Origin: Arenicellales bacterium | GTDB lineage: Bacteria > Pseudomonadota > Gammaproteobacteria > Arenicellales > Poriferihabitantaceae | NCBI GenBank assembly: GCA_965116335.1 | Contig: OZ220677.1 | Coordinates: forward strand, 228,131 to 292,130 | DNA length: 64,000 bases | Reading direction: 5' to 3' | Shown: positions 445 through 37,261 of the stretch, piece by piece | Numbering within the stretch: position 1 is the stretch's first letter | Layout: every line of letters starts with the position of its first letter | Notes under the pieces: model-generated | The model's database searches: none | Seen by the model: the letters and a program-made list of their open reading frames with translations, nothing else | What the model was told of the DNA's origin: nothing | Position numbers and translations under genes: made by a program

Positions 445-1806
445 ATGCAATCGTCACCCCGCCGAATCTGGATACGAAATCCGCTCTCGATATTTTCAGA
501 CCTCCCTGCAAGCGGGGGTATTGTGACCGAAGGCGCGGTCATTGCCGAGGTACTGGATTGTGGTGAGGCTCCCGCAAAACCCGTAGACGAAACCATTGAC
601 GCATCACAATCGGTCGTACTGCCCGGTTTGATCAACACGCACCACCACTATTACCAGACCCTGACCCGGGCTTGCCCTGTAGCATTGGATAAGGCGCTGT
701 TTCCGTGGTTGAAGAGCCTCTATCCGGTCTGGGCCGGGCTGGATCTGGAGATGGTCGAGGTAGCTACTGAACTTGCGTCCGTGGAACTCCTGCTATCAGG
801 TTGCACCACCAGCTCAGACCACCATTACCTCTTTCCTGCGGGTGCCGCATCCGCTATTGATGCCCAGGTGACGGCGTTGCGGCGCACCGGCCAACGCGCA
901 GTACTCACCCGCGGCTCCATGAGTCTGGGCGCGAATCAGGGAGGGCTGCCGCCGCAATCGGTGGTGCAGGGCCGGGACGAGATCCTGTCGGACTCGGCGC
1001 GACTGATCGACCAGTACCACGATCCTTTGCCCGGCGCCATGTTGCAGATTGCGCTGGCTCCCTGCTCGCCGTTCAGTGTGTCGCGGGAACTGATGATCGA
1101 GACGGCGGTGCTGGCCCGGGAGCAAGGCGTCCGGCTGCATACCCATTTGGCAGAAACAGAAGATGAGAACGCTTTTTGTCAACGCCAGTACGGTATGCGG
1201 CCATTGCATTATCTGGAATCTGTAGGATGGCTGGCGGATGATGTCTGGTTGGCTCATGGTATCCATTTCACGGAGACGGAGATCAATCGGTTGGGCAAGA
1301 CGGGTACAGGGATCACTCATTGTCCGAGCTCGAATATGATGCTGGGCTCAGGACAGTGTCGCGCCCTCGACCTGGAGAGCGCAGGGTGTCCGCTGGGTCT
1401 GGGTGTGGATGGCTCTGCTTCCAACGACAGTTCCAATTTAATCCAGGAAGTCAGGCAGGCGTTTTTGTTGCAGAGATTGCATTATGGCGCGTCGTCGGTG
1501 AGCCACAGAGATGCATTACGCTGGGCGACTGCCGGTTCTGCCGCTTGTCTGGGCAGGGCTGACATCGGCGCGATTGCGCCGGGTATGCAGGCGGACCTGG
1601 CGTTGTTTCGATTGGATGAGCCGAATTTTTCCGGTGCCGGGGAGCCGTTGGCGGCGCTGCTCCTGTGCGGAGCCTGGCGCGCCAATGATGTGATGGTGGC
1701 GGGTCGGTGGCGGGTGCGGGATAGCGAAATCCCCGATCTTGATCTGGGTGCACTGAAGGCACGGCACGGGGAGTTGGCACGCAACCTGCAGGGCATGTCC
1801 GGCTGA
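445..1806 (+). CDS. Metal-dependent amidohydrolase, 8-oxoguanine deaminase-like
   Basis: 453-aa track ORF with amidohydrolase motifs LPGLINTHHHYYQTLTRA, RLHTHLAET, HCPSSNMMLGSG and GLGVDGSASND. The full-length pattern (RIWIRNPL, LFPWLKSLYPVW, LTRGSMSLG, IALAPCSPFSV) matches my memory of the 8-oxoguanine deaminase subgroup. Purine-gene context supports the call. Confidence 0.8.
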   Translation: MQSSPRRIWIRNPLSIFSDLPASGGIVTEGAVIAEVLDCGEAPAKPVDETIDASQSVVLPGLINTHHHYYQTLTRACPVALDKALFPWLKSLYPVWAGLDLEMVEVATELASVELLLSGCTTSSDHHYLFPAGAASAIDAQVTALRRTGQRAVLTRGSMSLGANQGGLPPQSVVQGRDEILSDSARLIDQYHDPLPGAMLQIALAPCSPFSVSRELMIETAVLAREQGVRLHTHLAETEDENAFCQRQYGMRPLHYLESVGWLADDVWLAHGIHFTETEINRLGKTGTGITHCPSSNMMLGSGQCRALDLESAGCPLGLGVDGSASNDSSNLIQEVRQAFLLQRLHYGASSVSHRDALRWATAGSAACLGRADIGAIAPGMQADLALFRLDEPNFSGAGEPLAALLLCGAWRANDVMVAGRWRVRDSEIPDLDLGALKARHGELARNLQGMSG

Positions 1807-1935
1807 AAACCTGTCTCAAAAACCCACTTGACAAGGGATGCCCCCTCAAAGTACATTCATACTCTCAATATCCGGTAAAAAGCAGGCTAATGCAATGAAA
1901 AAAATAGAAATAAGTTCAATTAAGTCCTTGATTTA

Positions 1936-1944
1936 TGGTATAAT
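1936..1944 (+). promoter_or_regulatory. Perfect extended -10 promoter element TGGTATAAT (putative)
   Basis: Exact TGnTATAAT consensus in an AT-rich patch of an otherwise GC-rich region, and identical in the second leader (36843-36851). It ends 3 nt before the first CCGGATTA unit. There is no experimental support. Confidence 0.4.
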
Positions 1945-1947
1945 TGA

Positions 1948-2051
1948 CCGGATTACCGGATTACCGGATTACCGGATTACCGGATTACCGGATTACCGGA
2001 TTACCGGATTACCGGATTACCGGATTACCGGATTACCGGATTACCGGATTA
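1948..2051. repeat. Octanucleotide tandem repeat (CCGGATTA) x 13, perfect
   Basis: Counted directly: 104 nt from c1948 to a2051, all units identical. Confidence 0.97.
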
Positions 2052-2135
2052 CGCTTTGGCGCGTCGGCCATGAGCGCGTTCGCGTGGCTGCGCCGTTGCC
2101 TGGGTCCGTCCTCCCGGCCTGAATCTTTACCATCT

Positions 2136-2630
2136 GTCATTCCCCCCACCCGCTCTCCGGCGGGCTTCGCCCTTGTATCGCGGACTCCCCCTCAAGGGGG
2201 GAGTAATACCAACCCGACAATCATTCCCCCCTTGAGGGGGAATCCAATCCGCAAGCGGATTGGATGGGGGGACAACAACCCGTCAACGTATGATCCACCC
2301 GTCTTTCCCGCGAAGGCGGGAATCCACAACGATATGGAGGTTGTGGTTACCCCTCATGGGTGCCCGGTATCGTTGGTTCCTGTTCCAACGGTTGCGGGAG
2401 GGTACAAGACCCTCCCCTACGATAACGGTCGGGAATCATTCCAACGACATCATGTCGAAGCGGGAATCCGCGAGCGGATGCGGGAGGGCACGGAGACCCT
2501 CCCCTACGATAACGGGTTGGCGCGTCAGATGGCGATTGTGCCCCCCATCACACCCGCTTCGCGCGATGTGATTCCCCCTCAAGGGGGGAATGATGTGATA
2601 ACGGGTTGGGGGGCGGGAATCCACCTCGCC
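2136..2630. repeat. Cluster of REP/BIME-like palindromic units in the 5' region of the adhesin gene
   Basis: Contains cattccccccttgagggggaatccaatccgcaagcggattggatgggggg (type A), tttcccgcgaaggcgggaatccac (type C) and two copies of gcgggagggtacaagaccctcccctacgataacgg (type B). The same units recur at 10023-10900, 19396-19560, 32884-32925, 33640-33880 and 36985-37031. Confidence 0.7.
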
Positions 2631-5600
2631 CGCCGTCTGCGGTCGGGCCTGTCCCGCTTCCTGCTCGCCCTGCCACTGCTGACAATGTTTGCCACCGGAG
2701 CGCAGGCCCAGGTTGAGTGCTCCGGTGGCGGCCCGTATGAGGTGCCGCATGACTGGACCCTGAAACCCTCCGGTGTTTCCTCCGGTGACAATTTTCGTTT
2801 GCTGTTCCTGACCTCGGCGACACGCAATGCGAGTGCGACTGGTATCGGAACCTACAATACGTTCGTGCAGACCCGCGCCAAAGCCGGTCACAGCGCGATC
2901 ACCGACAGTTGCGGCGACGAGTTCAAGGTCGTCGGCTCGACCAGTGCGGTTGATGCCCGGGACAATACCTCGACCACCGGAGCGGGTCAGGCGATCTACT
3001 GGCTGACCGGCGCCAAGGTCGCCGACAACTATGCCGATTTCTATGACGGAAGCTGGGATAGCTATGCGAAGAAGACGGAGGCAGGAACAAACTACACAGG
3101 CAGTGCCTTCGTTTGGACAGGCACTAATCAGGACGGTACAAAATCTTCCCAGCCACTGGGCAACAGTGTAGTTACGACTGGCAACCCGGTATCTACTGGA
3201 AACCCTCTTGGTGGGACTGTAGGTAGCGGAGCTAACAGCCTCTCCTTCTACGCCCTCTCCCCCGTCTTCACAGTAGGGGCGGAACCCATAACCGTATCCA
3301 TCAGCGCCCCCACCGATGCGAACGAGGGCAATTCCGGCACGACGAACAAGCTCTTCACGGTGACCCTGTCGTCGGCCCATACGGCGGGTGTCTCAGTGCG
3401 GGTCTGCTACTCCGGCACCGCGACCCGAGGCGCATCCGCCGACTACCAGTCGCGTTTCAGCACGGCCATCTCTACTAACTCGTGCGCGACTCGCCTGATA
3501 GCCACTGGCAGTACTGGAACCAACGCTTACGGCATACAGATACGGGGCGACACCACTGTCGAGCCCGATGAGACAGTCATTGCAACGCTGTCCCTGGTCA
3601 ACCCGCCCGCCGGCGTGACCCTGGGCACGTCCACCGCCACCTACACCATCCTCGACGATGATGATACGACTGCTCCGGGCGTAACCTCGATCGAGCGCCA
3701 CTCGCCGACTGACCACTTCACCAATGCCGACAGCCTGACCTGGCGGGTGACCTTCAGCGAGGCCGTGCGCAATGTGGACACGACGGATTTCTCCCTCGTG
3801 ATCGCCCACACCTCCGTTGCGTTCCCCGGAACCACCACCCTGGCCGTCTCGTCGGTCTCGACCAGCGTCTACGACATCACCGCCTCCGGTAGTGGAATTG
3901 AGAATGTCCTCGACAACAGCATCCAACTGGTCTTTGCGAGCGGCCACAACATCGAGGACCTGTCCGGCAACGCACTGCCCGCATCGCCCACCCCCACCGG
4001 CACGGATGACAACTCCTTCACTTTGGACAACACCGCGCCGACCGTGACCTCAATCGAGCGCCAGTCTCCGACCACCGCCATGACCGATGAAGACAGTCTG
4101 ACCTGGCGGGTGACGTTCGATGATACCAGCGGCGAAGCAGTAGTGAACGTAGACACCACCGACTTCTCTGTCACCGGCACCACCGCCACGATTACCTCGG
4201 TATCGGAACACGCGACCAATACCTTCGACGTCACCGCCTCCGGTGGTGATCTGGACAGCCTCACCGGCACCGTAACCTTAAGCTTCGCCAACACCCACGA
4301 CATCACGGACGATGTTGGCAACGCACTGCCCGCATCGCCCACCCCCACCTCGGGCACCAATGACAATACCTTCGAGGTACAAAATGCGGAAGTCACCTTA
4401 TCAATCAGCGGCCCTGCCGACGCTAACGAGGGCAACTCCGGCACCAGAGACCTCGACTACACGGTGAGTTTATCACAGGCGCTTACGGGGTCAGACTATG
4501 TTGGATTTCAAATCTGCTTCACCGGCACCGCTACGATAGATTTAACAGAAGCTGCGACCATTCCCGCGAGTGCCGATTATCAGACGGTTTCAAATACCAA
4601 TCCCCTGAATACAAATTGCTCGCCACTTGGTAGTTTCCTCCCAAGCGCATCCCTTACAAAACGCGGTGCAATTATCCGTATCAAGGGCGACACCGACGCT
4701 GAATCCGATGAGACCGTGATCGCGACGTTGTCTATCACCAGCCAAAGCGGCGGTATCACCCTCGGCACCTCCACCCATACCCATACCATCCTCGACGATG
4801 ATGATACGACTGCTCCGGGCGTCACCTCGATTACGCGCCACTCGCCGACCGCGCTACATACCAATGCCGACAGCCTGACTTGGCAAGTGACCTTCAGCGA
4901 GGCCGTGCGCAACGTGGACACGACGGATTTCTCCCTGGTGGTCGCCACCACCTCCGTTGCGTACCCCGGAACCACCGCCCTGGCCGTCTCGCAGGTCTCG
5001 ACCAGCGTCTACGACATCACCGCCTCCGGCAGTGGAATTGAGAATTCCGATAATCCGGTCCAACTGAAATTCGACAGCAGCCACGACATCGAGGACCTGT
5101 CCAGCAACGCGCTGCCCGCATCGCCCACGATCAGCGGTGTGAATCACGCCTTCTTACTCGACAACACCGCGCCGACCGTGACCTCAATCGAGCGCCAGTC
5201 ACCGACCACATCCATGACCGATGAAGACAGCCTGACCTGGCGGGTGACGTTCGCTGACAGCGGCGGAACGATAGCGAACGTGGACACGGCTGACTTCCAG
5301 GTCACCGGCACGACTGCCACGATTACCTCCGTATCGGAACACGCGACCAATGTCTTCGACGTCACCGCCTCCGGCGGCGACCTGGACAGCCTCACCGGCA
5401 CGGTAACGCTGAGCTTCGCCAACACCCACGACATCACGGACGAAGCCGGCAACGCACTGACCGACACCACCCCCACCTCCGGCACCAATGACAACACCTT
5501 CGAGTTACAGAATGTCATTGACCCCGACGCCCCGAAAGTAGTCTCCATCCATCGCTATGAACAGCCGGTTCAGGGTCTGGGCACCAGTCTGGTCTGGCGG

Positions 5601-8600
5601 GTGCGTTTCAACAAACATCTGCCCAATGTGTACGCCTCGGACTTTACCCTGACCGGCACCACGGCCGGACTGGATGTACGCCATGATCTGAGTAATTATG
5701 ATCCGACCACCTACAAAACGATTGTTCACGTGTACGCGCAAGGCGGCGATCTGGACACCGTATCCGGCGCTGTCACCCTGAACTTCGCCAGCAATCACAA
5801 CATCCGGGATTACGAAGGCAGAAGACTGGCCTCCACCACGCCCTCCGGCGCCAACCAGAAGACGTTCACGCTGGATCCCAATCAAACGCTGATCTACTTC
5901 ACGCAACCGGAGTACTACGTCAACGAAGGCGAGGATGCCGTGCTCACTGTCAAGCTCTCGCGCCTGCAGGAGACCAAGACCACGATCCGTCTCTCCGCCA
6001 CTCCGCTCACCGCCACCGGCAATGGCATCGACTATGGTGGCCAGACCTACGAAGTCATCATCCCGCGCAGGCGCAGCAGTGGCACCTTCAATATCGAAAT
6101 AACGGATAAAGGCGGAAGGGAAGAAGAAGAAAATTTCCGAGTAGACATTCACACGTTCGACCTGACCGGCTTTGCCACGGCCCCTGCCCGGGGCAGCTCT
6201 ACGCTCAACGCCGGCACCTACATTCATATTCTCGACAAGGAAACCGCCGACTATCATGCCAACAGAAAACCCGGCTTACTATTTGACACCCCCTCCATGC
6301 AATGGAACGAAGCCGATGGCTGCACCAGCAAAAGCGATGGCACCGGACCCGGACCGAGCTATCAGGTCAAACTGGAGAAACAACCCTTAGGTCCGGTAGA
6401 AGTCTGGATCAAAGACCCCGATGACGACTATCGCAGTGACCCGGTCGCTACAGGTCGCCTGTATGTCGCCAACAGACGATTCCTGAGCCGATACCTGAAC
6501 GAGGAGAATGACCAAGTGCAAAAGTGGAAGGACGATACCCACACCGTCCTGCACTTCACCCCCGACAACTGGAATACCTACCAACGGGTTCAGGTCAGGA
6601 TTCGATGCGCCGACCATTACACCGCACAGATTCCCATTGTGCATCGTCTGTATACCAACTACACCGACGACAAGGGCAAACTCAGTCATGCCTATCCCGG
6701 CTATACCGGGGTGGTCAATCAGACCTGGAGCGTCCAGGTTCGGGTACACGACTCTGATCCACCGATTGTAGTGAAAGGTCTGCCCCCAGAAGGCCAGTCC
6801 ATTGCCATAGACGAAGACGGACATCAAGACTTTCAGATGACCTTGAGTCCATCGGCCTTTGCGCATGAAAGTTCACTGACGGTCTATCTGTCCGCCCGGG
6901 GCGGCAAGGCCGCCGGAGTCAAACGCAGGGATGGCGATGCCCAATCCTGTGGGGGTCCACTGGATGACTGTTTGATCTTCACGCCGTCCAATCGCACACA
7001 ATGGGTGCGGGTTTTTGCCATCAATCCCGGTCTGGATCAACTGAAAGTAGAGATTCCGCAACTGCAATGGGGAGACCTCTATCATGTACGCGATTGGGAG
7101 ATGACCTGGCCGATACAGGTATTGCAAGGACAGAATGCGCCACAGAATGCGCCGGCAGAAAGTGAACAAGCCAGCTATCAGCCGGTGACTTGTGTATCAG
7201 ATGCCCTGCTATCCGATGTTACGGACTATTCGAACGAGACCTGGCGAAGTTCGGTCGATCATGTCGAGCGCTGGAGCCGGGTACTGGCGGCCTTTGGCGT
7301 GGATAATGCCTACAGCAATCATCCGATGACCATTGCCGAGGCGCAAGCGCAGGCAGACCGTGGCCTTCAACGTTGGCTGCCGATTGTTCCTGCCCTGCAA
7401 TGTCTGGAGAACCCGCCACAGGAACAGCCACAAGTGGAAGAAGAAACCATACCACCCCCCACTATACCTGAAATCAGTCTGTCCTCTGGTTCTGCCATAG
7501 ATGAGGGGGGTACTGCCACCTTCACCGTCACCGCAGATAGCGCGCCGCAATCTGATCTGACGATTGGCTATACAGTGAGTCAAAGCGGAGACTATCTCGA
7601 TGCGCCGGGTAGTGGAGCAAGAACCGTGACTCTGGTGGCCGGAGCGACCACTGTTTCGGTCGCTATCGGTACAGTAGATGATGCGGCGGACGAGGTGGAT
7701 GGTGCGGTGAGTGTTACAGTAGACACCGGCAACGGCTATACCCTAGCCACCAACCAGGACAGCGCATCGGTCCCGGTGCGTGACAATGACGAACCGGTCG
7801 TGCGGATTAGTGCAGGCAGTGGTATCACAGAAGGAGATTCCGCCACCTTTACCGTAACCGCCCATCCGGTGCCTGCCGTGCCACTCGATATGACTGTCAC
7901 TGTGGCCCAGAACGGAGAGTTTGCGACCAGTGGAGAGACCGGCTCGCGAACTCTTACCCTCCCGGTCACCGGCAGCGCCACCTTCACGGTCGCTACACTG
8001 GATGACGCGGTAGACGAACCGGATGGTTCCATTAGCGCTACGATAAATACCGGTGCTGGCTACATAGTGGCGGAAGCGCCGAACCACACGGCAAGCGTTA
8101 CTGTATCTGATAACGATGTCACACTATCCTCCGGCCCCACCCTCTCAATCGGTGATGCCACTTTGCATGAGAACCAGCGTACCGGGTACTTCACCATCAC
8201 CTTGAGTGAAGCCATGCAATGGCCGGTCACCTTCTACTATGCCACGCAGGATTCCAACCCGGTATCGGCAAGGGCAGGGGAAGACTATATCGCCTGGCAA
8301 CGCGCCTGGAAGTTACGCAGTACCATCAATCCCGGTCAAACCGAAAAGAAAATCTATGTGCGGCTGTATAACGACAATCATGATGAAGACCCGGAAACCT
8401 TCCAGATGGTGATATACGATGCCGGAGTCAGTGGAGCGGATGCAACGGTAGCCATAGCCGACAGTACCGCAACCGGCACCATCATCAATGATGATCCGAT
8501 GCCGCAAGCCTGGCTGACCCGATTCGGTCGCACGATAGCCCAACAAGCCATTGATGGACTATCTGATCGCATCGCAGACAGCCGCACCGCAGGCACACAA

Positions 8601-10022
8601 GGCACGGTAGCCGGACAAGCCTTTACGCTGGGTACATCCAGCCAATCAGAATCCGTCCTGTCTCATTCCAGTATCCATTCGATGGATGATGACTTCGCTT
8701 ACTCCACCGATGCGGTACATGACCGGCATTACTTCGGCGGCACACAGAGCCAGTCTTATGATATGACAGTACGGGAAGCCTTACTCAACAGTTCCTTTAC
8801 CGCCACTGGTGAGAAAGATGCGACAGGCGGCAGTGTATCCTTCTGGGGACGGGCCACACAAGGTCACTTCGATGGACGGGAAGGCGCTTTCTCATTAGAC
8901 GGAGAGACCACCACTGCATTATTGGGTACAGACTATGCCAAAGACAACTGGCTGGTTGGACTGACTCTGATACAAAGTGATGGAGAAGGCCGTTATACCG
9001 ATACCGAACCTGACACCCGCACGCATTCACAACTGTGTACTCAGCAGATGTCCGCACAGGAAAGAAGTGTTCTGTGTGAAGGTGCGGTACGCGAAGGCGA
9101 TGGCGAAGTCGAAGCCTCGCTGACCGCGATTACGCCGTATGCCTCCATTCAAGCCTCTGATTCAATCCGTCTGTGGGGTACGCTTGGACAGGGTAGTGGA
9201 GAAGTCACCCTGCAACCGGAATTGGGCGATGCCATCCCTTCTGATATGAGCTGGAGCATGGCAGCGATGGGAATGCGAGGGGATTTGTTACAACAAGAAC
9301 AGGGACTCTCTCTGGCGCTGACTGCCGATGCCTTATGGTCGCGTACCGAGTCAGACCAGACTCATGCACTGGCGGCCTCCAATGCCAGCACAACCCGTAT
9401 TCGGGCTGGACTGGAGAGTAGCTGGAAGAAGAATCTTGCAAACGGTCAAGTTACGCCCCGTCTGGAAGTCGGTATCAGGCAGGATGGCGGCGATGCAGAG
9501 ACCGGAACGGGGTTAGAGATCGGCGGTGGTATTGCCTGGCAGGATACAAACCTCGGACTCTCTCTTGATCTGTCGGGGCGTACTCTGGTCTCGCATGATT
9601 CAGATGATCTTGAAGATCGGGGAGTTGCTGCATCGTTTATCTTTGATCCAGAACCACAAAGCCAACAGGGACTGTCCCTGACCGTCAATCAGGATTGGGG
9701 GGGACAGTCTACTGGCGGACTGGATGCCTTGTTTGCAGAGCAATCCATCAGTGAACGTACCGGCAGTGCATCAGAGAGTCGCTGGAATGCCCAGGCGGCG
9801 TATGGTTTCCCGGTATTATCGGGACGATTCACGGGCAGTCCGTATATCGGTACGGGGATAACGAATAGTACGCAGGAATATACGCTGGGTTGGAGATTGA
9901 CTCCGGTTCATACCACCGGCAAGGCATTGAACTTTACGATGGATGTCAAGGCGACGCATCGGGAGACTGATGATGATGAACCTACGCAGTTTGTTGGGGT
10001 TGAGGTTGGGGTGCGGTGGTGA
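2595..10022 (+). CDS. Large type Va autotransporter adhesin with Calx-beta-like and Ig-like repeats (about 2,475 aa; start uncertain)
   Basis: The track ORF is 1944..10022, but its first ~217 codons read through the VNTR and REP hairpins. The first credible start is GTG 2595, preceded by AAGGGGGG (2581-2588). That start gives the signal peptide VITGWGAGIHLARRLRSGLSRFLLALPLLTMFATGAQA/QVE. The body is a unique N-terminal domain, then 2 x (Calx-beta-like plus two Ig-like 'TAP.VTSI.R.SPT..D.LTWRVTF' modules), then more Calx-beta-like modules. The C-terminal ~500 aa start at NDDPMPQAWLTRFGRT (about 8494) and end ..VGVEVGVRW with a terminal aromatic residue, as in autotransporter beta-barrels. Confidence 0.85.
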   Translation: MITGWGAGIHLARRLRSGLSRFLLALPLLTMFATGAQAQVECSGGGPYEVPHDWTLKPSGVSSGDNFRLLFLTSATRNASATGIGTYNTFVQTRAKAGHSAITDSCGDEFKVVGSTSAVDARDNTSTTGAGQAIYWLTGAKVADNYADFYDGSWDSYAKKTEAGTNYTGSAFVWTGTNQDGTKSSQPLGNSVVTTGNPVSTGNPLGGTVGSGANSLSFYALSPVFTVGAEPITVSISAPTDANEGNSGTTNKLFTVTLSSAHTAGVSVRVCYSGTATRGASADYQSRFSTAISTNSCATRLIATGSTGTNAYGIQIRGDTTVEPDETVIATLSLVNPPAGVTLGTSTATYTILDDDDTTAPGVTSIERHSPTDHFTNADSLTWRVTFSEAVRNVDTTDFSLVIAHTSVAFPGTTTLAVSSVSTSVYDITASGSGIENVLDNSIQLVFASGHNIEDLSGNALPASPTPTGTDDNSFTLDNTAPTVTSIERQSPTTAMTDEDSLTWRVTFDDTSGEAVVNVDTTDFSVTGTTATITSVSEHATNTFDVTASGGDLDSLTGTVTLSFANTHDITDDVGNALPASPTPTSGTNDNTFEVQNAEVTLSISGPADANEGNSGTRDLDYTVSLSQALTGSDYVGFQICFTGTATIDLTEAATIPASADYQTVSNTNPLNTNCSPLGSFLPSASLTKRGAIIRIKGDTDAESDETVIATLSITSQSGGITLGTSTHTHTILDDDDTTAPGVTSITRHSPTALHTNADSLTWQVTFSEAVRNVDTTDFSLVVATTSVAYPGTTALAVSQVSTSVYDITASGSGIENSDNPVQLKFDSSHDIEDLSSNALPASPTISGVNHAFLLDNTAPTVTSIERQSPTTSMTDEDSLTWRVTFADSGGTIANVDTADFQVTGTTATITSVSEHATNVFDVTASGGDLDSLTGTVTLSFANTHDITDEAGNALTDTTPTSGTNDNTFELQNVIDPDAPKVVSIHRYEQPVQGLGTSLVWRVRFNKHLPNVYASDFTLTGTTAGLDVRHDLSNYDPTTYKTIVHVYAQGGDLDTVSGAVTLNFASNHNIRDYEGRRLASTTPSGANQKTFTLDPNQTLIYFTQPEYYVNEGEDAVLTVKLSRLQETKTTIRLSATPLTATGNGIDYGGQTYEVIIPRRRSSGTFNIEITDKGGREEEENFRVDIHTFDLTGFATAPARGSSTLNAGTYIHILDKETADYHANRKPGLLFDTPSMQWNEADGCTSKSDGTGPGPSYQVKLEKQPLGPVEVWIKDPDDDYRSDPVATGRLYVANRRFLSRYLNEENDQVQKWKDDTHTVLHFTPDNWNTYQRVQVRIRCADHYTAQIPIVHRLYTNYTDDKGKLSHAYPGYTGVVNQTWSVQVRVHDSDPPIVVKGLPPEGQSIAIDEDGHQDFQMTLSPSAFAHESSLTVYLSARGGKAAGVKRRDGDAQSCGGPLDDCLIFTPSNRTQWVRVFAINPGLDQLKVEIPQLQWGDLYHVRDWEMTWPIQVLQGQNAPQNAPAESEQASYQPVTCVSDALLSDVTDYSNETWRSSVDHVERWSRVLAAFGVDNAYSNHPMTIAEAQAQADRGLQRWLPIVPALQCLENPPQEQPQVEEETIPPPTIPEISLSSGSAIDEGGTATFTVTADSAPQSDLTIGYTVSQSGDYLDAPGSGARTVTLVAGATTVSVAIGTVDDAADEVDGAVSVTVDTGNGYTLATNQDSASVPVRDNDEPVVRISAGSGITEGDSATFTVTAHPVPAVPLDMTVTVAQNGEFATSGETGSRTLTLPVTGSATFTVATLDDAVDEPDGSISATINTGAGYIVAEAPNHTASVTVSDNDVTLSSGPTLSIGDATLHENQRTGYFTITLSEAMQWPVTFYYATQDSNPVSARAGEDYIAWQRAWKLRSTINPGQTEKKIYVRLYNDNHDEDPETFQMVIYDAGVSGADATVAIADSTATGTIINDDPMPQAWLTRFGRTIAQQAIDGLSDRIADSRTAGTQGTVAGQAFTLGTSSQSESVLSHSSIHSMDDDFAYSTDAVHDRHYFGGTQSQSYDMTVREALLNSSFTATGEKDATGGSVSFWGRATQGHFDGREGAFSLDGETTTALLGTDYAKDNWLVGLTLIQSDGEGRYTDTEPDTRTHSQLCTQQMSAQERSVLCEGAVREGDGEVEASLTAITPYASIQASDSIRLWGTLGQGSGEVTLQPELGDAIPSDMSWSMAAMGMRGDLLQQEQGLSLALTADALWSRTESDQTHALAASNASTTRIRAGLESSWKKNLANGQVTPRLEVGIRQDGGDAETGTGLEIGGGIAWQDTNLGLSLDLSGRTLVSHDSDDLEDRGVAASFIFDPEPQSQQGLSLTVNQDWGGQSTGGLDALFAEQSISERTGSASESRWNAQAAYGFPVLSGRFTGSPYIGTGITNSTQEYTLGWRLTPVHTTGKALNFTMDVKATHRETDDDEPTQFVGVEVGVRW
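3283..5515 (+). repeat. Two diverged in-frame copies of a ~1.1-kb coding module (Calx-beta-like + 2 Ig-like) inside the autotransporter gene
   Basis: atcctcgacgatgatgatacgactgctccgggcgt occurs at 3648 and 4788 (offset 1140 bp = 380 codons). aacgagggcaa occurs at 3321 and 4425 (offset 1104 bp, i.e. a 36-bp indel between copies). The protein segments are ILDDDDTTAPGVTSIERHSPTDHFTNADSLTWRVTFSEAVRNVDTTDFSLV and ILDDDDTTAPGVTSITRHSPTALHTNADSLTWQVTFSEAVRNVDTTDFSLV. Confidence 0.8.
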
Positions 10023-10900
10023 GTGCCTGATCCTTATGGTTGTGGATTCCCGCCTGCGCGGGAATGACGGGTTGGGGCGTCGGATGGCGGTTGTTGTCCC
10101 CCCATCCAATCCGTTTGGCGGATTGGATTCCCCCTCAAGAGCCTGTCCCCGGCTTGATCGGGGAGGGGAATGATGATGTTGGTGCAAGGTCGAAATGATG
10201 TCGTAGGGGAGGGTCTTGTACCCTCCCGCAGATGTCGGGCGGATATCAACGATACCGGGCACCCACAGAGGGGCGCCCCTACGATGACATCAGGCGCGCA
10301 TCCATATCATTGTGGATTCCCGCATTTGCGGGAAAGACGGGTGGTTGGTGCGTGGGATGGCGGTTGTGGATTCCCGCCTGCGCGGGAAAGACGGGTTGGG
10401 GCGTCGGATGGCGGTTTTGTGCCCCCATCCAATCCGCTTGCGGATTGGATTCCCCCTCAAGGGGGAATGATGTTGATACATGGATCGAAATGATGTCGTA
10501 GGGGAGGGTCTTGTACCCTCCCGCAGATGTCGGGCGGATATCAACGATAGCGGGCACCCACAGAGGGGCGCCCCTACGATGACATCAGGCGCGCATCCAT
10601 ATCATTGTGGATTCCCGTTTGCACGGGAAAGACGGGTTGGGGCGTGGGATGACGATTGTGCCCCCCATCCAATCCGTTTGCGGATTGGATTCCCCCTCAA
10701 GGGGGGAATGATATTCGTCTGGGCACCCATACGATGAACGCGATGTGATTCCCCGGTCTGCGGGGGGATGATGCGATGACGGGTGGTTGGGGCGTCGGAT
10801 GATGGTTGTGGATTCCCGCATTTGCGGGAATGACGGGCTGTTTCATGCGATGACGGTTGTGCCCCCAGGGAGCAGGCTTGCATACCACGCCCGGGATTTG
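10023..10900. repeat. ~880-bp array made only of REP/BIME-like palindromic units (three families, mosaic order)
   Basis: Type A is ccccccatccaatccg(n3-4)gcggattggattccccctcaagggg. Type B is tcgtaggggagggtcttgtaccctcccgcagatgtcgggcggatatcaacgata(c/g)cgggcacccacagaggggcgcccctacgatgac. Type C is gtggattcccgc(n4)gcgggaa(a/t)gacgggttggggcgt. Type B starts at 10201 and 10496, so a ~295-bp composite unit occurs twice in tandem. Many overlapping stop-free ORFs on both strands here are artefacts. Confidence 0.8.
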
Positions 10901-19395: not shown

Positions 19396-19560
19396 TTGTC
19401 GTAGGGGGGCAGGCTCTACGAGGACGTTAGGTGCAGATTCCGTATGGTTGTGGGTTCCTGCTTGCGCGGGAAAGACGGATGGTTGGGGCGTGGGATGGTG
19501 GTTGTGTCCCCCCATCCAATCCGCAGGCGGATTGGATTCCCCCTCAAGGGGGGAATGATT
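19396..19560. repeat. REP/BIME-like units (types C and A) between convergent trxA and the SulP gene
   Basis: Contains ttcctgcttgcgcgggaaagacgg....ccccccatccaatccgcaggcggattggattccccctcaagggggg. The last codons and stop of the SulP ORF lie inside the type A unit. Confidence 0.6.
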
Positions 19561-33639: not shown

Positions 33640-33880
33640 CAACCCATCACTCCCTCCTTGAGGGGGAGTCAAATCTGCGGAGCAGATTTGGTGGGGGCAC
33701 AGCCGTCATTCCACGCCCCAACCCGTCTTTCCCGTGAAAACGGGAATCCACAGCAATATGGAACCTGCAATTACCGATGCGTAGGGGCGCTCCTTGTGGG
33801 TGCCCGGTATCGTTGATACCCGTTCCGGCATTCGCGGGAGGGTACAAGACCCTCCCCTACGATGATGGTTTCGACCACGC
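33640..33880. repeat. REP/BIME-like units (variant A, C, B in reverse orientation)
   Basis: Contains ctccttgagggggagtcaaatctgcggagcagatttggtggggg; ccgtctttcccgtgaaaacgggaatccac; gcgggagggtacaagaccctcccctacgatgatgg. Confidence 0.6.
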
Positions 33881-33891
33881 GCCAAAATCAC

Positions 33892-35329
33892 CTAAAGTCT
33901 CCCCATTTTTCAGTTATGTACTATATAAGCGTTTGAAAAGGTTGTAGAAAGGTTGGTTATTTTGTGGGATCAGAGTTCTGCTTTTGGTACAATGGTTTTA
34001 TCGTAAACTACTGAAACCAAAAGAGAACTCTGATGACGAATGATAGCCGGGAACGTAATAAATGGAAAGTCCGAATTACCGATTGTGTGAATCAATCGAG
34101 TGAAGTAATCAGTCAGCCGGTAGCCAAGCTGATGGCGGAGGTTATGGTGGGTATATTAAGCAGTGGGAGTTTGCAGTTATCGATGATTGGGCGGAGTTTG
34201 AAAGAGCCGACTCGTCTGCATCACACGATGAAGCGGTTATCGCGGATGTTGGGGAAACATGGTGAGATTGCATGGGCTGCGGAAGATTGTTTACTGGAGC
34301 AGATGTCGGGTCGGGTAACGGACGATATGGTGATAGCGATTGATGCGGGAGATTTGAACCGGGAGGGCAGTCGCGCCAGCGAAGGGTTATGCCGGGTACG
34401 GGATGGAGACCAAGGAGATATTGTGAATGGTTATCCGTTATTGAGTGTCGTTGCACGCTGTTTGGATAGTGGCCGGACATTTCCGTTGTTGACTCGCTTG
34501 CTGTCGTCGAATCGGGGTTCATACAAGAGCGAGAATCGGGATATTGTGAATGTCATGGAGCGGGTGCAGGGGAGTTTGGAGAGTCGTCCGTTATGGGTGA
34601 TAGACCGGGGTGGAGACCGGGGTGGAGACCGGGGGGTGTTATGGGATTTCTGGTTGCGGGGAGATTGGAGGATATTGGTACGGTCAGCCAATCTTCGTCA
34701 CTGGTTGTGGAGGGGTTCGAAGGAGACGGCCCAACAGATTGCGTGTCAGTTGCCCTTGAAGCACCGGGGCAAGTTGAGGAAACAGGCACGGGAGTCGGTT
34801 CGTTTTGGTATTACGACTGTATTCTTGAAAGAACATCCCGATACGCCGTTGTCGATGATTGTGGTGCGTCATGGCAAGCGACAACCGATGGTATTGGTCA
34901 GTACTGAGCGGATACGGGGTCGGTTGCAAGGGGAGCGTCTGATTCAATCGTACATTCATCGTTGGGCTTGTGAGGAAGGGTATCGGTTCAGTAAGCAGGG
35001 ATTTGGATTGGAGCGGGTACAGGCGAGGAAATTATCCACCTTGCAGAATCTGGTTGCATTGGCGACCTTGGCCTGGGGATTGCTGGCCTGTCACCAGAAT
35101 CAGGGGAATCGGTTGATAGACAAAGCCAAGCGGCAAAAGAGTCACCAACCCCTGATTTTCCCGTTCTACACGCTGTTATCCGGTTGGCAGGCGTTATTTG
35201 CCGATGCCAAAACCCTGTTCTATGACTGGTGGAGAAAACCCAAACGTCCCCCACCCAGACAGACCGACCTGTTCATCAATAATGGACGGCTAACCCCAAT
35301 ACTCTCATGAAAAAATGGGGAGAGTTCAG
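33892..35329 (+). mobile_element. IS4-family insertion sequence (1,438 bp) with 9-bp target-site duplication
   Basis: The terminal inverted repeats are ctaaagtctccccattttt (33892-) and the reverse complement of the right end, ctgaactctccccattttt (17/19 match). The element is flanked by direct repeats CAAAATCAC at 33883-33891 and 35330-35338. It has a single DDE transposase ORF. Confidence 0.8.
34033..35310 (+). CDS. IS4-family DDE transposase
   Basis: 425 aa. Candidate catalytic residues are in AIDAGD and VIDRGGD, and YIHRWACEEGYRFSK matches the IS4 Y-(2)-R-(3)-E-(6)-K signature exactly. A 12-bp unit is repeated 2.7x next to the second Asp (DRGGDRGGDRG). Confidence 0.85.
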   Translation: MTNDSRERNKWKVRITDCVNQSSEVISQPVAKLMAEVMVGILSSGSLQLSMIGRSLKEPTRLHHTMKRLSRMLGKHGEIAWAAEDCLLEQMSGRVTDDMVIAIDAGDLNREGSRASEGLCRVRDGDQGDIVNGYPLLSVVARCLDSGRTFPLLTRLLSSNRGSYKSENRDIVNVMERVQGSLESRPLWVIDRGGDRGGDRGVLWDFWLRGDWRILVRSANLRHWLWRGSKETAQQIACQLPLKHRGKLRKQARESVRFGITTVFLKEHPDTPLSMIVVRHGKRQPMVLVSTERIRGRLQGERLIQSYIHRWACEEGYRFSKQGFGLERVQARKLSTLQNLVALATLAWGLLACHQNQGNRLIDKAKRQKSHQPLIFPFYTLLSGWQALFADAKTLFYDWWRKPKRPPPRQTDLFINNGRLTPILS

Positions 35330-35341
35330 CAAAATCACCAC

Positions 35342-36718
35342 TGTTAAGAGCAAATAGACTTGTCCGGTTTTATAGCAAATGAATTGTCCGCTTTTATGAT
35401 ACCTTGATTCTTGCTCCGGGTTAACCCGGAGCAAGAATCAAACCGAACGTGCGCGGCGGACCGGACGCGGCTGTTCGGATGCAAATTCATAGTAATCGCC
35501 CCCTGGCATCGTATCGAGCCAGTTCTCTGGGACCGTGATGAACCGCCAGACCCTGATCCAGATAATCCAGCACCTGGACGCGGGCTTTGACGTAATGGCA
35601 ACGATGCCGGTCTGCCGGTATCTGTAACACCTTGCGCCGATAGCGCACACAGTTGTCTGCACCCACCATTCGCTCATGGCGCTCACACAGAATATCAGAA
35701 AGTACCGACAGGTCGCGGCAAGCGACAAAGGCGCTACCTGCCTCTCTCGCCGGTTTGCTGAACTGGGCATTGTAAGCCGGCAGGTACTCCTTTTGGAGAT
35801 AGCGGTTGGCCGTGTCCATGTCGGTGATGCCTGCACTGGCCAGTTCCTTCACCAGACGATCCTGGTGGGTTCTAAAGACCCGCTCACAGCGCCCCCGCGC
35901 CTGCGGCGAGTAAGCCGGGATCATCTCAATGCCCAACTGCTTCATGGCACGCCCAAATTGAGTCGGATTCTTCTTGCCCACTTTGCCTCCCGCCTCCGGC
36001 GTATGCCAGTAATGACTGCCCCGATCCGTGTACAGCGAACAGAATAGTCCCTTCGACTCAATCACTTCGCGCACCCCCCGGAAACTGCTGCGAGTGCCTT
36101 CTTCTTCACAGAAAAACATCGAGTAATGCTCATTGGTCGCGTCGTCCATCGTCACAATCAAATCCCAACGCTGACCCACCACCCATTCATGCGTACTGCC
36201 GTCCTGATGCAACATCATCCCCGGCCACGGCGCCGCCTCCCGTCTCTTGCGGTGCGCCCCGCGCTTCGCGTACCGCTTCACCACACCCGCTCCCTGCAAC
36301 TGGTTCTTCACCCACGTATAGCTCCTCTGCCCTCCATCCCGCCGATACCAGGAATGAAAATGACGAACGTTCCATCCCCGGTGATGAGCTCGATAACGTT
36401 CCACCAACCTCATCACTTCGTCTACCGGCGCACGACGATGCGACACTTCGCACATACGCTTGTCCAGCAACCCGTCCAGTCCTTCCTCCTCGTAACGATC
36501 TACATAACGACGGAATGTGCGACTACACACCCCCAACAAATTCGCCGCTTCTTCCTGCGTCAATCGACTCTTGTTCCACCCTTCATACGCTTCTTCAAAT
36601 CTCATCTGTCTGGTCTCCTGTAACCACTGCGCCCGGATCATCAAACACCTCTTTCATTGTGTGTCAAAACCGGACAGTTTATGTGCTACTCAACCGGACA
36701 ACTCATTTGCTCGCTACA
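35342..36718 (-). mobile_element. ISNCY-like (IS1202-group-like) insertion sequence, 1,377 bp, with 17-bp target-site duplication
   Basis: The ends are TGTTAAGAGCAAAT... and ...ATTTGCTCGCTACA (TGT/ACA termini). Subterminal TTGTCCGG motifs occur twice at each end. The element is flanked by the identical 17-mer TTCAGCAAAATCACCAC at 35325-35341 and 36719-36735. The family call rests on my memory of the transposase sequence pattern. Confidence 0.7.
35487..36644 (-). CDS. Integrase-core (rve/DDE) transposase with N-terminal HTH, ISNCY-family-like
   Basis: 385 aa with the HTH LTQEEAANLLGVCSRTFRRYVDRYEEEGLDGL. The catalytic pattern is HQDGSTHEW...YTDRGSHY...SPQARGRCER. Confidence 0.85.
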   Translation of the reverse strand: MMIRAQWLQETRQMRFEEAYEGWNKSRLTQEEAANLLGVCSRTFRRYVDRYEEEGLDGLLDKRMCEVSHRRAPVDEVMRLVERYRAHHRGWNVRHFHSWYRRDGGQRSYTWVKNQLQGAGVVKRYAKRGAHRKRREAAPWPGMMLHQDGSTHEWVVGQRWDLIVTMDDATNEHYSMFFCEEEGTRSSFRGVREVIESKGLFCSLYTDRGSHYWHTPEAGGKVGKKNPTQFGRAMKQLGIEMIPAYSPQARGRCERVFRTHQDRLVKELASAGITDMDTANRYLQKEYLPAYNAQFSKPAREAGSAFVACRDLSVLSDILCERHERMVGADNCVRYRRKVLQIPADRHRCHYVKARVQVLDYLDQGLAVHHGPRELARYDARGRLL

Positions 36719-36842
36719 TTCAGCAAAATCACCACTTGACAGGCGATGACGCTTACAGCAAACTTACCCCCTCAATATCCGGTAAAAAGCAGGCTAATGC
36801 AATGAAAAAAATAGAAATAAATTCAATTAAGTCCTTGATTTA

Positions 36843-36851
36843 TGGTATAAT
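36843..36851 (+). promoter_or_regulatory. Perfect extended -10 element TGGTATAAT (putative), copy 2
   Basis: Identical sequence and identical position relative to the VNTR as at 1936-1944. Confidence 0.4.
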
Positions 36852-36854
36852 TGA

Positions 36855-36886
36855 CCGGATTACCGGATTACCGGATTACCGGATTA
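36855..36886. repeat. Octanucleotide tandem repeat (CCGGATTA) x 4
   Basis: Counted directly: 32 nt, all units perfect. Confidence 0.97.
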
Positions 36887-37239
36887 CGCTTGGCGCGTCG
36901 GCGTGACGGCCATGAGCGCGTTCGCGTGGCTGCGCCGTTGTCGGGGTTGGTTCTCCCGGCCTGAATCTTTACCATCTGTCATTCCCCCCTTGAGGGGGAA
37001 TCCAATCCGCGAAACGGATTGGATGGGGGGGGCGCAGTGTCGAAATTAATATCAAAATTGCATTGCATTACCGAGCGTTTTAGATACAATCACGGTTCCT
37101 GTCGGATGCCCTGTTGGCCCGTTTGTTAATGTTACGTGTACCAGTCTAAAGAGCCAACTCAGGAACCGAACCCCCAAGTACGAACCAAAATGCAACAAGA
37201 AAGCAGACTGATAAAGAAGAGCGGGGAAATTCCCGTTCA

Positions 37240-37261
37240 CCCCCCCCCCCCCCCCCCCCCC
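37240..37261. repeat. Homopolymeric tract C22 (G22 on the - strand)
   Basis: Counted directly (c37240 to c37261). It lies 265 nt upstream of the proposed start of the giant gene. All three + frames hit a stop between the tract and 37527. Confidence 0.97.

Follow-up and report, generated by a model that had tools for sequence, protein, structure and literature searches.

What does a perfect octanucleotide array do when it lies beside a consensus -10 hexamer at the head of a giant adhesin gene? The question arises in a 64,000-nucleotide stretch of DNA (the window; all features given here by coordinate lie on the + strand) from a sponge-symbiont genome, a relative of Candidatus Poriferihabitaceae. 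Two near-identical cassettes, each with a TTGACA, a TGGTATAAT site and a perfect array, had been described from the sequence-only reading, and both were confirmed. At locus A the TTGACA is at 1828-1833, TGGTATAAT at 1936-1944 and (CCGGATTA)x13 at 1948-2051, while at locus B the array is (CCGGATTA)x4 at 36855-36886. TRF returned 13.2 copies of the 8-bp unit at 1947-2052 and 4.2 copies at 36854-36887, in both cases with 100% matches, in agreement with the perfect homogeneity noticed earlier. The flanks match at 93% (1845-1980 vs 36752-36887) and 91% (2052-2147 vs 36894-36989), and a search of the window for the 26-nt flank AAGTCCTTGATTTATGGTATAATTGA gave exactly two occurrences, against an expectation of 0.00 from 100 shuffles.

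The stretch before the array is AT-rich, as had been claimed, with 29-30% G+C in the left module against 59% across the window. At locus A this module (1858-1947; 29% G+C) holds an SD-like AGCAGG (1881-1886), an ATG at 1895, which opens MKKIEISSIKSLIYGIID, and the TGGTATAAT site; its copy at locus B (36736-36854) holds a TTGACA (36736-36741), an ATG (36802) and TGGTATAAT (36843-36851). A promoter scan called a promoter-like site, P1, at 1828-1857 (TTGACA, 18 nt, TACATT; 10/12 match), the TTGACA of which forms the left edge of the repeated cassette. All cassette copies keep this hexamer, as do the loose ends of further genomic copies, and the -10 part of P1 differs from copy to copy. The left module is almost invariant among copies and across species (6/64 nt changed in L022, and similar in L023), with the SD-like AGCAGG not kept in L023.

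Analysis of the reading frames placed the cassette at the start of the gene at locus A rather than ahead of it. Gene A is an autotransporter adhesin with an ORF of 2650 aa from a conserved ATG at 2070, 18 nt past the array end, to 10022, and its frame is already open from 1944. The segment at 2070-2147, earlier read as the GC-rich part of a 0.5-kb untranslated leader, encodes the conserved adhesin N-terminus (MSAFAWLRRC...), and the REP elements at 2148-2594, earlier read as leader hairpins, are in-frame insertions within gene A. Between orthologues the REP indels measure 87 and 18 nt, both multiples of three, and the adhesin frame has 0 stops in the ~181 codons separating array and signal peptide, vs 3 and 6 in the other two. 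A signal-peptide-like segment ending in AQA (2619-2708; RRLRSGLSRFLLALPLLTMFATGAQA) follows 183 residues after Met 2070, and no canonical start codon adjoining it is conserved. The proposed position of the cassette, 0.5-0.6 kb upstream of an adhesin, is right for the distance from the array to the signal-peptide regions (~0.55-0.64 kb) but not for the gene, given the frame open from 1944 at locus A. Further downstream are Calx-beta domains in the passenger (Pfam) and then a C-terminal Autotransporter beta-domain (PF03797; 28.5 bits, cut-off 26, E = 1.6e-6), and the protein ends in ...GVEVGVRW, with the aromatic end of a type Va autotransporter beta-barrel. The cassette at locus A represents this gene's predicted promoter together with its true 5' end, and gene A is one member of a large adhesin family in this genome. 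Two other candidates were rejected: GTG 2595 as the gene A start, which is not conserved in L024, and an ESPR-type extended signal peptide, for which N-terminal regions gave no Pfam match with the E limit relaxed to 10.

The copy at locus B had been taken for the leader of gene B, but it is a truncated gene start consisting of promoter, four repeat units and an adhesin N-terminus (MSAFAWLRRCRGWFSRPESLPS...) of 45 codons followed by a stop (36912-37049), with IS genes adjoining. All three frames hold stop codons between this remnant and giant gene B (37527-64000; >8800 aa), which runs off the window and encodes an N-terminal signal peptide and Calx-beta domains. As gene B has its own start codon (ATG), the cassette could at most donate transcription to it. 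Separately, the upstream region of gene B itself contains a poly-C tract of 22 C (37240-37261), a second variable simple repeat with 12 C in the orthologue L020, which was absent from the earlier description.

We searched the genome and its relatives for the cassette and tabulated repeat numbers, as had been suggested, and found that array length varies by strain, paralogue and species. At locus A there are 13 copies vs 7 in orthologue L024 (upstream flank 98.25% identical), at locus B 4 vs 6 in orthologue L020 (few SNPs across an 800-nt leader), and at paralogue C 15 (P0032, same genome) vs ~24 in L021, all read from assembled contigs, with assembled (Logan) contigs of sequencing runs, which are flat and DNA-like in depth, collapsing the array. 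Array length is unequal in 3/3 of these orthologous comparisons between near-identical strains, with flanks ~98-99% identical; as assembled, the array is hypervariable between near-identical strains. This bears out the earlier proposal of a simple-sequence repeat that is hypermutable and linked to genes for surface proteins, and three elements of a contingency locus are found together here: a perfect short repeat, a promoter/5' coding site in a surface-protein gene and strain-variable copy number. The cassette had been presented as common to the two adhesin genes; both do have it, but it also occurs elsewhere in the same 2.99-Mb genome (P0003, P0005, P0007, P0008 and P0032), and k-mer depth suggests tens of left-module copies per genome. 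The difference in copy number between paralogous loci likewise extends beyond 13 and 4, to 5, 8, 9, 12 and 15 at the other copies of this genome, with 16 units in L023 and 5 in L022. The right module is missing from L023.

A multi-copy left module would also suit a regulator or a CCGG-specific methyltransferase acting on CCGG blocks spaced by 8 bp beside the promoter, a mobile promoter, or a gene for a small protein or sRNA, and a CCGG core constant in all unit variants and small ORFs called on the cassette are consistent with these. We consider such explanations extremely unlikely, however, as no candidate regulator was identified, terminal inverted repeats and target duplications were not seen, blastn gave no match to the cassette in plasmids and phages, and an Rfam scan of 1700-2700 found no family, with nothing near the gathering score (e.g. 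aspC 28 bits vs 100). Moreover, every cassette with a known and intact context is attached to an adhesin gene, and the C-termini of the small ORFs change with the register. A stand-alone small protein was rejected because of this register-dependent C-terminus and the lack of the right module in L023, out-of-frame alleles being the better description, and a MITE or mobile promoter because of the missing terminal repeats and the known intact contexts. Flank patterns gave 0 matches in two JGI metagenome scans.

Our preferred reading, held tentatively, is a slipped-strand contingency locus, most likely operating as a translational register switch. Transcription would begin upstream, at or near the TTGACA-N18-TACATT of P1, and translation at ATG 1895 within the AT-rich module, after which ribosomes would pass through 18 codons (MKKIEISSIKSLIYGIID) into the octanucleotide array, whose sense frames are all free of stop codons. 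With a unit of 8 bp, every copy gained or lost by strand slippage would shift the reading register. When copy number (n) was simulated at locus A, ATG 1895 fused to the adhesin frame at n = 11, 14 and 17 and opened a 75-aa ORF at n = 13. In the former cases the ORF would continue into the MSAFAWLRR... N-terminus and give an ON product of ~2700 aa, ordered as N-terminus, REP-laden extension, signal peptide, passenger and beta-barrel; at n = 13, as assembled here, it would end after 75 codons at TGA 2120 and the gene would be OFF; and at n = 12 or 15 it would stop at a TGA overlapping ATG 2070, where reinitiation is possible. Both kinds of allele exist: the cassette ATG shares the adhesin register in P0032 (same genome, 2536 aa), P0034 and P0041/L023, and is out of frame at locus A of the window, L024, P0003, P0005, P0007, P0008 and P0086. 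We infer that slippage within populations alters the level of adhesin in this way, and that the array most likely lets the bacterium toggle its adhesins on and off at random, like some human pathogens. The original suggestion of slipped-strand variation through the promoter or leader therefore survives in part, as the repeat is hypervariable but the switch is predicted to be at least as likely translational as transcriptional.

Several points speak against a register switch. The in-frame share is ~3/10 among arrays of the AT-rich type, which is the chance expectation of one in three, ATG 2070 could be a register-independent start, and an in-frame product with 100-290 residues before the signal peptide would be unusual for Sec export. 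That L023 does not keep the SD-like AGCAGG counts in the same direction. In-frame alleles at chance frequency would suit a neutral VNTR, that is, a mutational hot spot without a role in expression that is carried along with a duplicated, recombining gene start. CCGGATTA arrays do occur in other contexts in unrelated genomes: a genome scan for (CCGGATTA)3 found 19 loci, with only L008 related and the rest, including a Rhodobacter MAG, Vibrio and actinomycetes, in unrelated contexts. We nevertheless judge neutrality very unlikely, because the array lies exactly between the start signals and the conserved coding region, and because 8-bp CCGGNNNN arrays hold the equivalent position in homologues of 47-70% identity even though the unit sequence varies by lineage. 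Every one of these arrays is internally homogeneous and the CCGG core is unchanged in all unit variants. At least 10 more-distant homologues have 8-aa repeats at the equivalent place (IAGSPDRR, equal to CCGGATCG, and VAGSPGRR, equal to CCGGGTCG), and the DNA of L025 (38 units) and L026 (10.8 units) confirms that 8-bp arrays stand behind the 8-aa repeats. One homologue has a 5-aa repeat, probably from a 5-bp unit, and neither 8 nor 5 is a multiple of three.

These homologues also bear on whether the array is translated. In about half of the family there is no start codon between array and signal peptide; the linker is conserved without a post-array Met (e.g. P0034, P0041, P0049, P0056, P0057, P0073, P0074 and P0086), and in some of these homologues Gln replaces Met at the aligned position. 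With no Met available between array and signal peptide in many homologues, the array must be translated there. L025 has a canonical GGAGG 7 nt ahead of its upstream ATG, and the 1815-aa ORF that follows reads across all 38 units. In the other half, approximately, the equivalent of ATG 2070 and its surrounding nucleotides are conserved after the array, and the equivalent of Met 2070 is the called start in 25/120 homologues.

This conserved Met is one of the observations that would fit a different mechanism, in which polymerase uses the TATAAT as an extended -10 (TGGTATAAT), starts at ~1951 in the first unit and makes the array the 5' leader of ATG 2070. Leader length, mRNA stability or promoter escape would then set a graded adhesin level, as in hmwA, the precedent with 7-bp and 8-bp repeats (PMC2424069, PMC3309571). 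If the TATAAT is a working promoter, ATG 1895 would be absent from the mRNA, which counts against the register switch. The -10-like box abutting the array, already pointed out in the sequence-only reading, proved to be conserved well beyond the window, as TATAAT adjoins the array in the window, in L020-L024 and even in the distant homologues L025 and L026. In the latter two, TTGACA lies exactly 23 nt upstream of TATAAT, with both hexamers perfect although the spacer has diverged, and 10/10 GC-type N-termini show LT, 6-7 variable residues and then I-I or I-M, which fits the same two hexamers. As the rare codons TTG-ACA and ATA-ATx are kept while the spacer residues vary, TTGACA and TATAAT are constrained as DNA. 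An A-rich UP-like tract (1892-1913) would also suit initiation here, as would, tentatively and from one sequence only, a predicted hairpin around ATG 2070 with 3 compensated pairs. However, a spacer of 23 nt cannot be reconciled with a canonical sigma-70 promoter, the TG of the extended -10 is missing in L025 and L026, the putative -35 (TTCAAT) differs among copies, and the site was not called by the promoter scan. Likewise, the members of the family without a start codon from array to signal peptide retain the TATAAT all the same. RNA folding of leaders with n = 1-20 showed no dependence of ATG 2070 accessibility on n, with start-region pairing constant at 0.61, which removes the simplest leader-structure mechanism, and start-codon occlusion was rejected. 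The right module gave an RNA structure z-score of ~ -1 and no covariation. Overall we regard a promoter-proximal or leader repeat as the main rival to the register switch, possible but rather doubtful, and the invariant TATAAT beside the array as conserved but unexplained.

A combination of the two mechanisms may also be considered, in which an upstream promoter would serve the coding array and its register switch, and the internal TATAAT would give shorter mRNAs in which the array leads ATG 2070; copy number would then set the on/off state plus a basal level. P1, the SD-like site and ATG 1895 do coexist at locus A with TGGTATAAT and ATG 2070, and the overlap of TGA with ATG 2070 at n = 12 or 15 would favour reinitiation. 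Dual use is more complex than either single model, though, and no data require it, and we consider it decidedly unlikely.

The register switch that we favour has counterparts among intragenic repeat switches, such as the CTCTT repeats in the signal-peptide region of Neisseria opa and the CAAT repeats in the 5' coding region of H. influenzae lic1. As in opa and lic1, the unit length is not divisible by three, the repeat lies few codons after a start codon, and in-frame and out-of-frame alleles are found within a surface-protein multigene family. Unlike these systems, the unit here is 8 bp, the array adjoins a consensus -10 hexamer and is followed by another conserved Met, with a lengthy N-terminal region ahead of the signal peptide, and switching is a prediction from sequence. 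In Moraxella catarrhalis uspA2, AGAT repeats lie in the 5' UTR of an adhesin gene, past the transcription start and ahead of the start codon, which would be the analogue if the array proved to be a 5' leader; the unit there is 4 bp, however, organism and adhesin class differ, and the transcription start here is only predicted. For the region downstream of the array, the likeness is to the Rickettsia palindromic elements, which are inserted in frame into genes: the REP-like palindromes lie within the ORF extension of gene A with orthologue indels in multiples of three, although the two repeat families are unrelated.

Among known cases hmwA comes nearest, and with it the concept is already known. 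In NTHi hmw1A/hmw2A, copy number of the upstream 7-bp ATCTTTC repeats correlates with transcript amount (PMC2424069), and in hmwA of Haemophilus influenzae biogroup aegyptius the octanucleotide GCATCATC is present in 12-15 copies, so that an 8-bp unit is documented there too (PMC3309571). As in hmwA, one genome has at least two paralogous large adhesin genes with the same short repeat just upstream of a conserved coding region, and copy numbers vary by locus and strain. By contrast, HMW adhesins belong to two-partner secretion, whereas these are type Va autotransporters with Calx-beta passengers, for which Pfam shows Autotransporter beta-domain and Calx-beta only and nothing of an HMW1/HMW2-type exoprotein. 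The unit sequence also differs, and the hosts here are uncultured sponge symbionts. The hmwA repeats have been described as promoter elements; here the frame of an upstream ATG crosses the array into the gene, so that a frame switch is possible. The locus is thus not a member of the hmwA family, though by analogy it may work alike.

The exact repeat was not found in the searchable literature, in line with the earlier impression that this particular cassette was undescribed, and full-text searches found no paper on phase-variable adhesins in sponge symbionts. Phase-variable adhesins are a hallmark of host-adapted pathogens, and sponge metagenomes yielded several different genomes that contain the adhesin family with a repeat at the gene start. 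Were the repeat to switch expression, these uncultured symbionts would vary their surface stochastically, which would bear on persistence in, or evasion of, a filter-feeding host that has innate immunity and phagocytes. A bolder proposal, which we rate as unlikely, is that TTGACA-N23-TATAAT with a CCGGNNNN array heads an adhesin family of several unrelated sponge-microbiome bacteria and acts as a three-state switch governed by copy number modulo three. The states would be a fused ORF, termination with reinitiation at the overlapping ATGA, and off, and a further, graded layer could come from an internal promoter with its start point within the repeat. In that case, whole sponge symbiont communities would share a common, previously unseen contingency system for host attachment, and the two hexamers, set at a non-canonical distance of 23 nt, would represent a novel type of control element. 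For annotation, the on/off state of adhesin-family genes should be read off the repeat number; at present, gene callers place the starts of these genes at four or more sites, some of which fall upstream of the array and others within the REP elements or the signal peptide.

Using Tandem Repeats Finder on the window, we detected a perfect 8-bp unit in 13.2 copies at 1947-2052 (locus A) and in 4.2 copies at 36854-36887 (locus B). The flanks of the two arrays are alike, with 93% identity on the left (1845-1980 versus 36752-36887) and 91% on the right (2052-2147 versus 36894-36989), and the window has just two occurrences of a 26-nt flank including TGGTATAAT, where chance would give none. TTGACA is present at 1828 in locus A and 36736 in locus B, the left module has a G+C content of 29-30% compared with 59% for the window, and the array has no stop codon in any sense frame. 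The sequence-only reading had described these cassettes and arrays accurately.

At locus A, an uninterrupted adhesin frame (gene A) extends from 1944 to 10022, and over the ~181 codons between array and signal peptide it has no stops, compared with three and six in the other frames. The GC-rich conserved segment codes for MSAFAWLRRCLGPSSRPESLPS..., with an ATG at 2070, 18 nt 3' of the array; among the 120 best-matching homologues in other genomes, 25 have the equivalent Met as their called start, and the motif M-S-x-x-A-W-L-R-R-x-x-R-P-S-S-P-P-E is kept at the protein level. REP hairpins (2148-2594) also lie inside the frame, and REP units gained or lost between orthologues and paralogues change the length by 87 and 18 nt, each divisible by three. 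Furthermore, the C-terminal 400 residues contain a Pfam Autotransporter beta-domain above cut-off, and the passenger contains Calx-beta domains. The locus A cassette therefore comprises the gene's promoter and 5' end and is not a distant leader, and the long untranslated leader proposed earlier is not supported, since its GC-rich segment encodes a conserved N-terminus and its hairpins are in the adhesin frame.

REP-like palindromes (e.g. CCCGCGAAGGCGGGAATCCAC, GGGGGAATCCAATCCGCNNGCGGATTGGATGGGGGG) were seen at 2148-2621, 10012-10866, 19481-19552 and 33721-33869, and reach k-mer depths of up to ~450x single-copy in metagenomes; gene callers often take an ATG within one of them as the start of the adhesin gene. 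RNAalifold predicted a tentative stem-loop around the conserved ATG (window 2058-2104 and the equivalents in L022, L025 and L026) in which GCCAUG pairs with CRUGGC, with three compensated pairs, all in L025, among few independent sequences. Between the window and its locus A orthologue L024, adhesin identity falls to ~78% directly after the signal peptide, and the first passenger modules differ (QVECSGGGPYEVPHDW... at window 2709-3900 versus QTLSISAPTDANEG... at L024 4290-4600), which points to probable mosaic recombination among family members.

At locus B, the copy of the adhesin N-terminus (36912-37049) reaches a stop after 45 codons, and stops occur in all three frames between this remnant and gene B, which has its own ATG at 37527 and an N-terminal signal peptide. 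This cassette is thus a truncated gene start, and the earlier view of the cassette as leader of both adhesin genes fails here. Directly 5' of it are two transposase-like genes (34033-35310, + strand; 35487-36644, - strand; DDE_Tnp_1 and HTH/IS481-like), while in the orthologous locus L020 a different sequence (CCACTTGACA) borders the cassette at the same point, which suggests that its left edge has been rearranged repeatedly. Gene B itself exceeds 8,800 codons and extends beyond the window; at 40386-56926 a 6,150-bp (2,050-codon) unit is repeated in tandem ~2.7 times, with 98.9% identity between copies.

Relatives were sought by an exact-pattern scan for the array in one genome per species, which found it, again flanked by 'ataattga', in a chromosome of Candidatus Poriferihabitaceae (OZ243941.1; L008/L023), a family within Arenicellales for which the literature searched contained one paper, a sponge genome note. 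Querying a protein collection with the small ORF through the array, and then with gene A, revealed further copies (P0003, P0005, P0007, P0008, P0032 and P0086) on the 2,987,679-bp contig to which the window belongs. Among the related loci, L024 is the true locus A orthologue from another sample, with amidohydrolase 5' and xanthine dehydrogenase genes 3' in both; L021 is a third paralogue, L022 a copy from an Ircinia variabilis metagenome, and L025 and L026 the two distant homologues with DNA. Logan contigs all end at window position 1854 in five of five runs, and k-mer depth summed over 1895-1938 was 27-41x single-copy depth across 27 contigs, which suggests that the metagenome contains tens of copies of the left module; for the right module, k-mer depth gave about five copies. 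The amidohydrolase 3' end (~60 nt) and the intergenic stretch are also duplicated 5' of the third paralogue (window 1747-1854; L021 3680-3790), so a segmental duplication copied the start of the adhesin gene and the flank upstream of it as one piece. The CA insertion of the L021 flank is likewise present on a contig of single-copy depth in run X1.

Comparison of matched loci demonstrates that the array is hypervariable. Locus A has 13 units in the window versus seven in L024, with 98.25% identity across 1.9 kb upstream, locus B has four versus six in L020, and paralogue C has 15 in the window's genome (P0032) versus ~24 in L021. Elsewhere there were 16 (L023) and five (L022) units, and further copies in the window's genome had 5, 8, 9 and 12, with every array internally homogeneous. 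Apart from unit number, the 800-nt locus B leader differs by a few SNPs, by a REP indel and in a poly-C tract (37240-37261, 266 nt 5' of the gene B ATG) of 22 C in the window versus 12 C with two substitutions in L020, a second variable simple repeat ahead of a giant surface-protein gene.

In 13 of 120 homologues, an 8-residue repeat close to the N-terminus is part of the ORF, and the DNA units differ: RITGLPDY corresponds to CCGGATTA, RLTGLPAY to CCGGCTTA, IAGSPDRR to CCGGATCG and VAGSPGRR to CCGGGTCG. At the same position, P0056 (residues 36-55; 290,737-bp contig) has the 5-residue repeat (SRAEP)n instead, which would imply a 5-bp or 15-bp unit. L025 and L026 contain 38 and 10.8 perfect 8-bp units, respectively, with a perfect TATAAT touching the array and ATG-AGx (Met-Ser) 3-27 nt after it. 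In both, TTGACA and TATAAT are perfect (L025 2609-2643; L026 2859-2893) and separated by a diverged spacer of exactly 23 nt, which exceeds that of a standard sigma-70 promoter. All ten GC-type N-termini have Leu-Thr, 6-7 variable residues and Ile-Ile or Ile-Met directly before the repeat, and in the two lineages with DNA (L025 and L026) they are encoded by rare codons, TTG-ACA and ATA-ATx; both hexamers are therefore constrained as DNA, and the -10 next to the repeat is genuine and conserved.

With copy number differing at every matched locus, the phase-variation idea holds, and some form of simple-sequence contingency locus is very probable here. As to mechanism, a switch of reading register is the leading candidate, at slightly under even chances. 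Translation from ATG 1895 (preceded by AGCAGG, in an AU-rich context) would give an 18-codon frame leading into the array; in simulations of locus A, 11, 14 or 17 units produced a single ORF of ~2700 aa, the observed 13 a 75 aa ORF, and 12 or 15 an end at a TGA overlapping ATG 2070. In-frame alleles occur in P0032 (same genome), P0034, P0041/L023 and P0145/L025, the last with a canonical GGAGG 7 nt 5' of the upstream ATG, and out-of-frame alleles are also present. Alternatively, the repeat could lie in a promoter-proximal 5' leader, with transcription from the invariant TATAAT starting within the first unit and translation at ATG 2070. In favour of this, the hexamers are conserved as DNA, and this Met is conserved along with its nucleotide context. 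Against it, many genes have no post-array Met, the hexamers are 23 nt apart, and in RNA folding unit number had no effect on the start region; we rate this main rival as less likely than the register switch. Also in favour of the register switch, about half of the family lacks a Met from array to signal peptide, with Gln at the aligned position in some, yet retains the conserved linker, so translation must begin 5' of the array in those genes; in ~20 more homologues the called start falls within the signal peptide, as would be expected of out-of-register alleles of the Met-less type. A hybrid using both register and leader is improbable, and a neutral VNTR or a DNA-binding or methylation array takes the small remainder. 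Neisseria opa repeats are an intragenic switch, and such systems would be the closest analogues if the register switch is true.

The cassette family has its nearest precedent in Haemophilus hmw1A/hmw2A, where large adhesin paralogues each have 7-bp repeats whose number varies by locus and strain and is negatively correlated with transcript level (PMC2424069); biogroup aegyptius has an octanucleotide unit, in 12-15 copies (PMC3309571). However, the present proteins are autotransporters and not HMW-type exoproteins, so hmw is an analogue and the cassette genes are not members of that family. The literature searched contained no two consecutive CCGGATTA units, and searches pairing sponge symbionts with phase variation or contingency loci gave nothing relevant; the system is of interest for its host setting, for a gene family that is large and widely spread, and for a hexamer-repeat module that is unexplained. 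Arrays of 3-7 CCGGATTA units were seen in unrelated genomes, namely an uncultured Rhodobacter MAG (L001, L004, L015 and L017), Vibrio UBA2441 (L012) and L003. Those in the Rhodobacter MAG look like a separate dispersed repeat family, lying directly 3' of an identical 28-nt sequence (ACTTGAAAACACAAATTGATCCAATATT) in two of four contigs, with a related sequence in a third, and followed by long degenerate 8-mer runs in two contigs.
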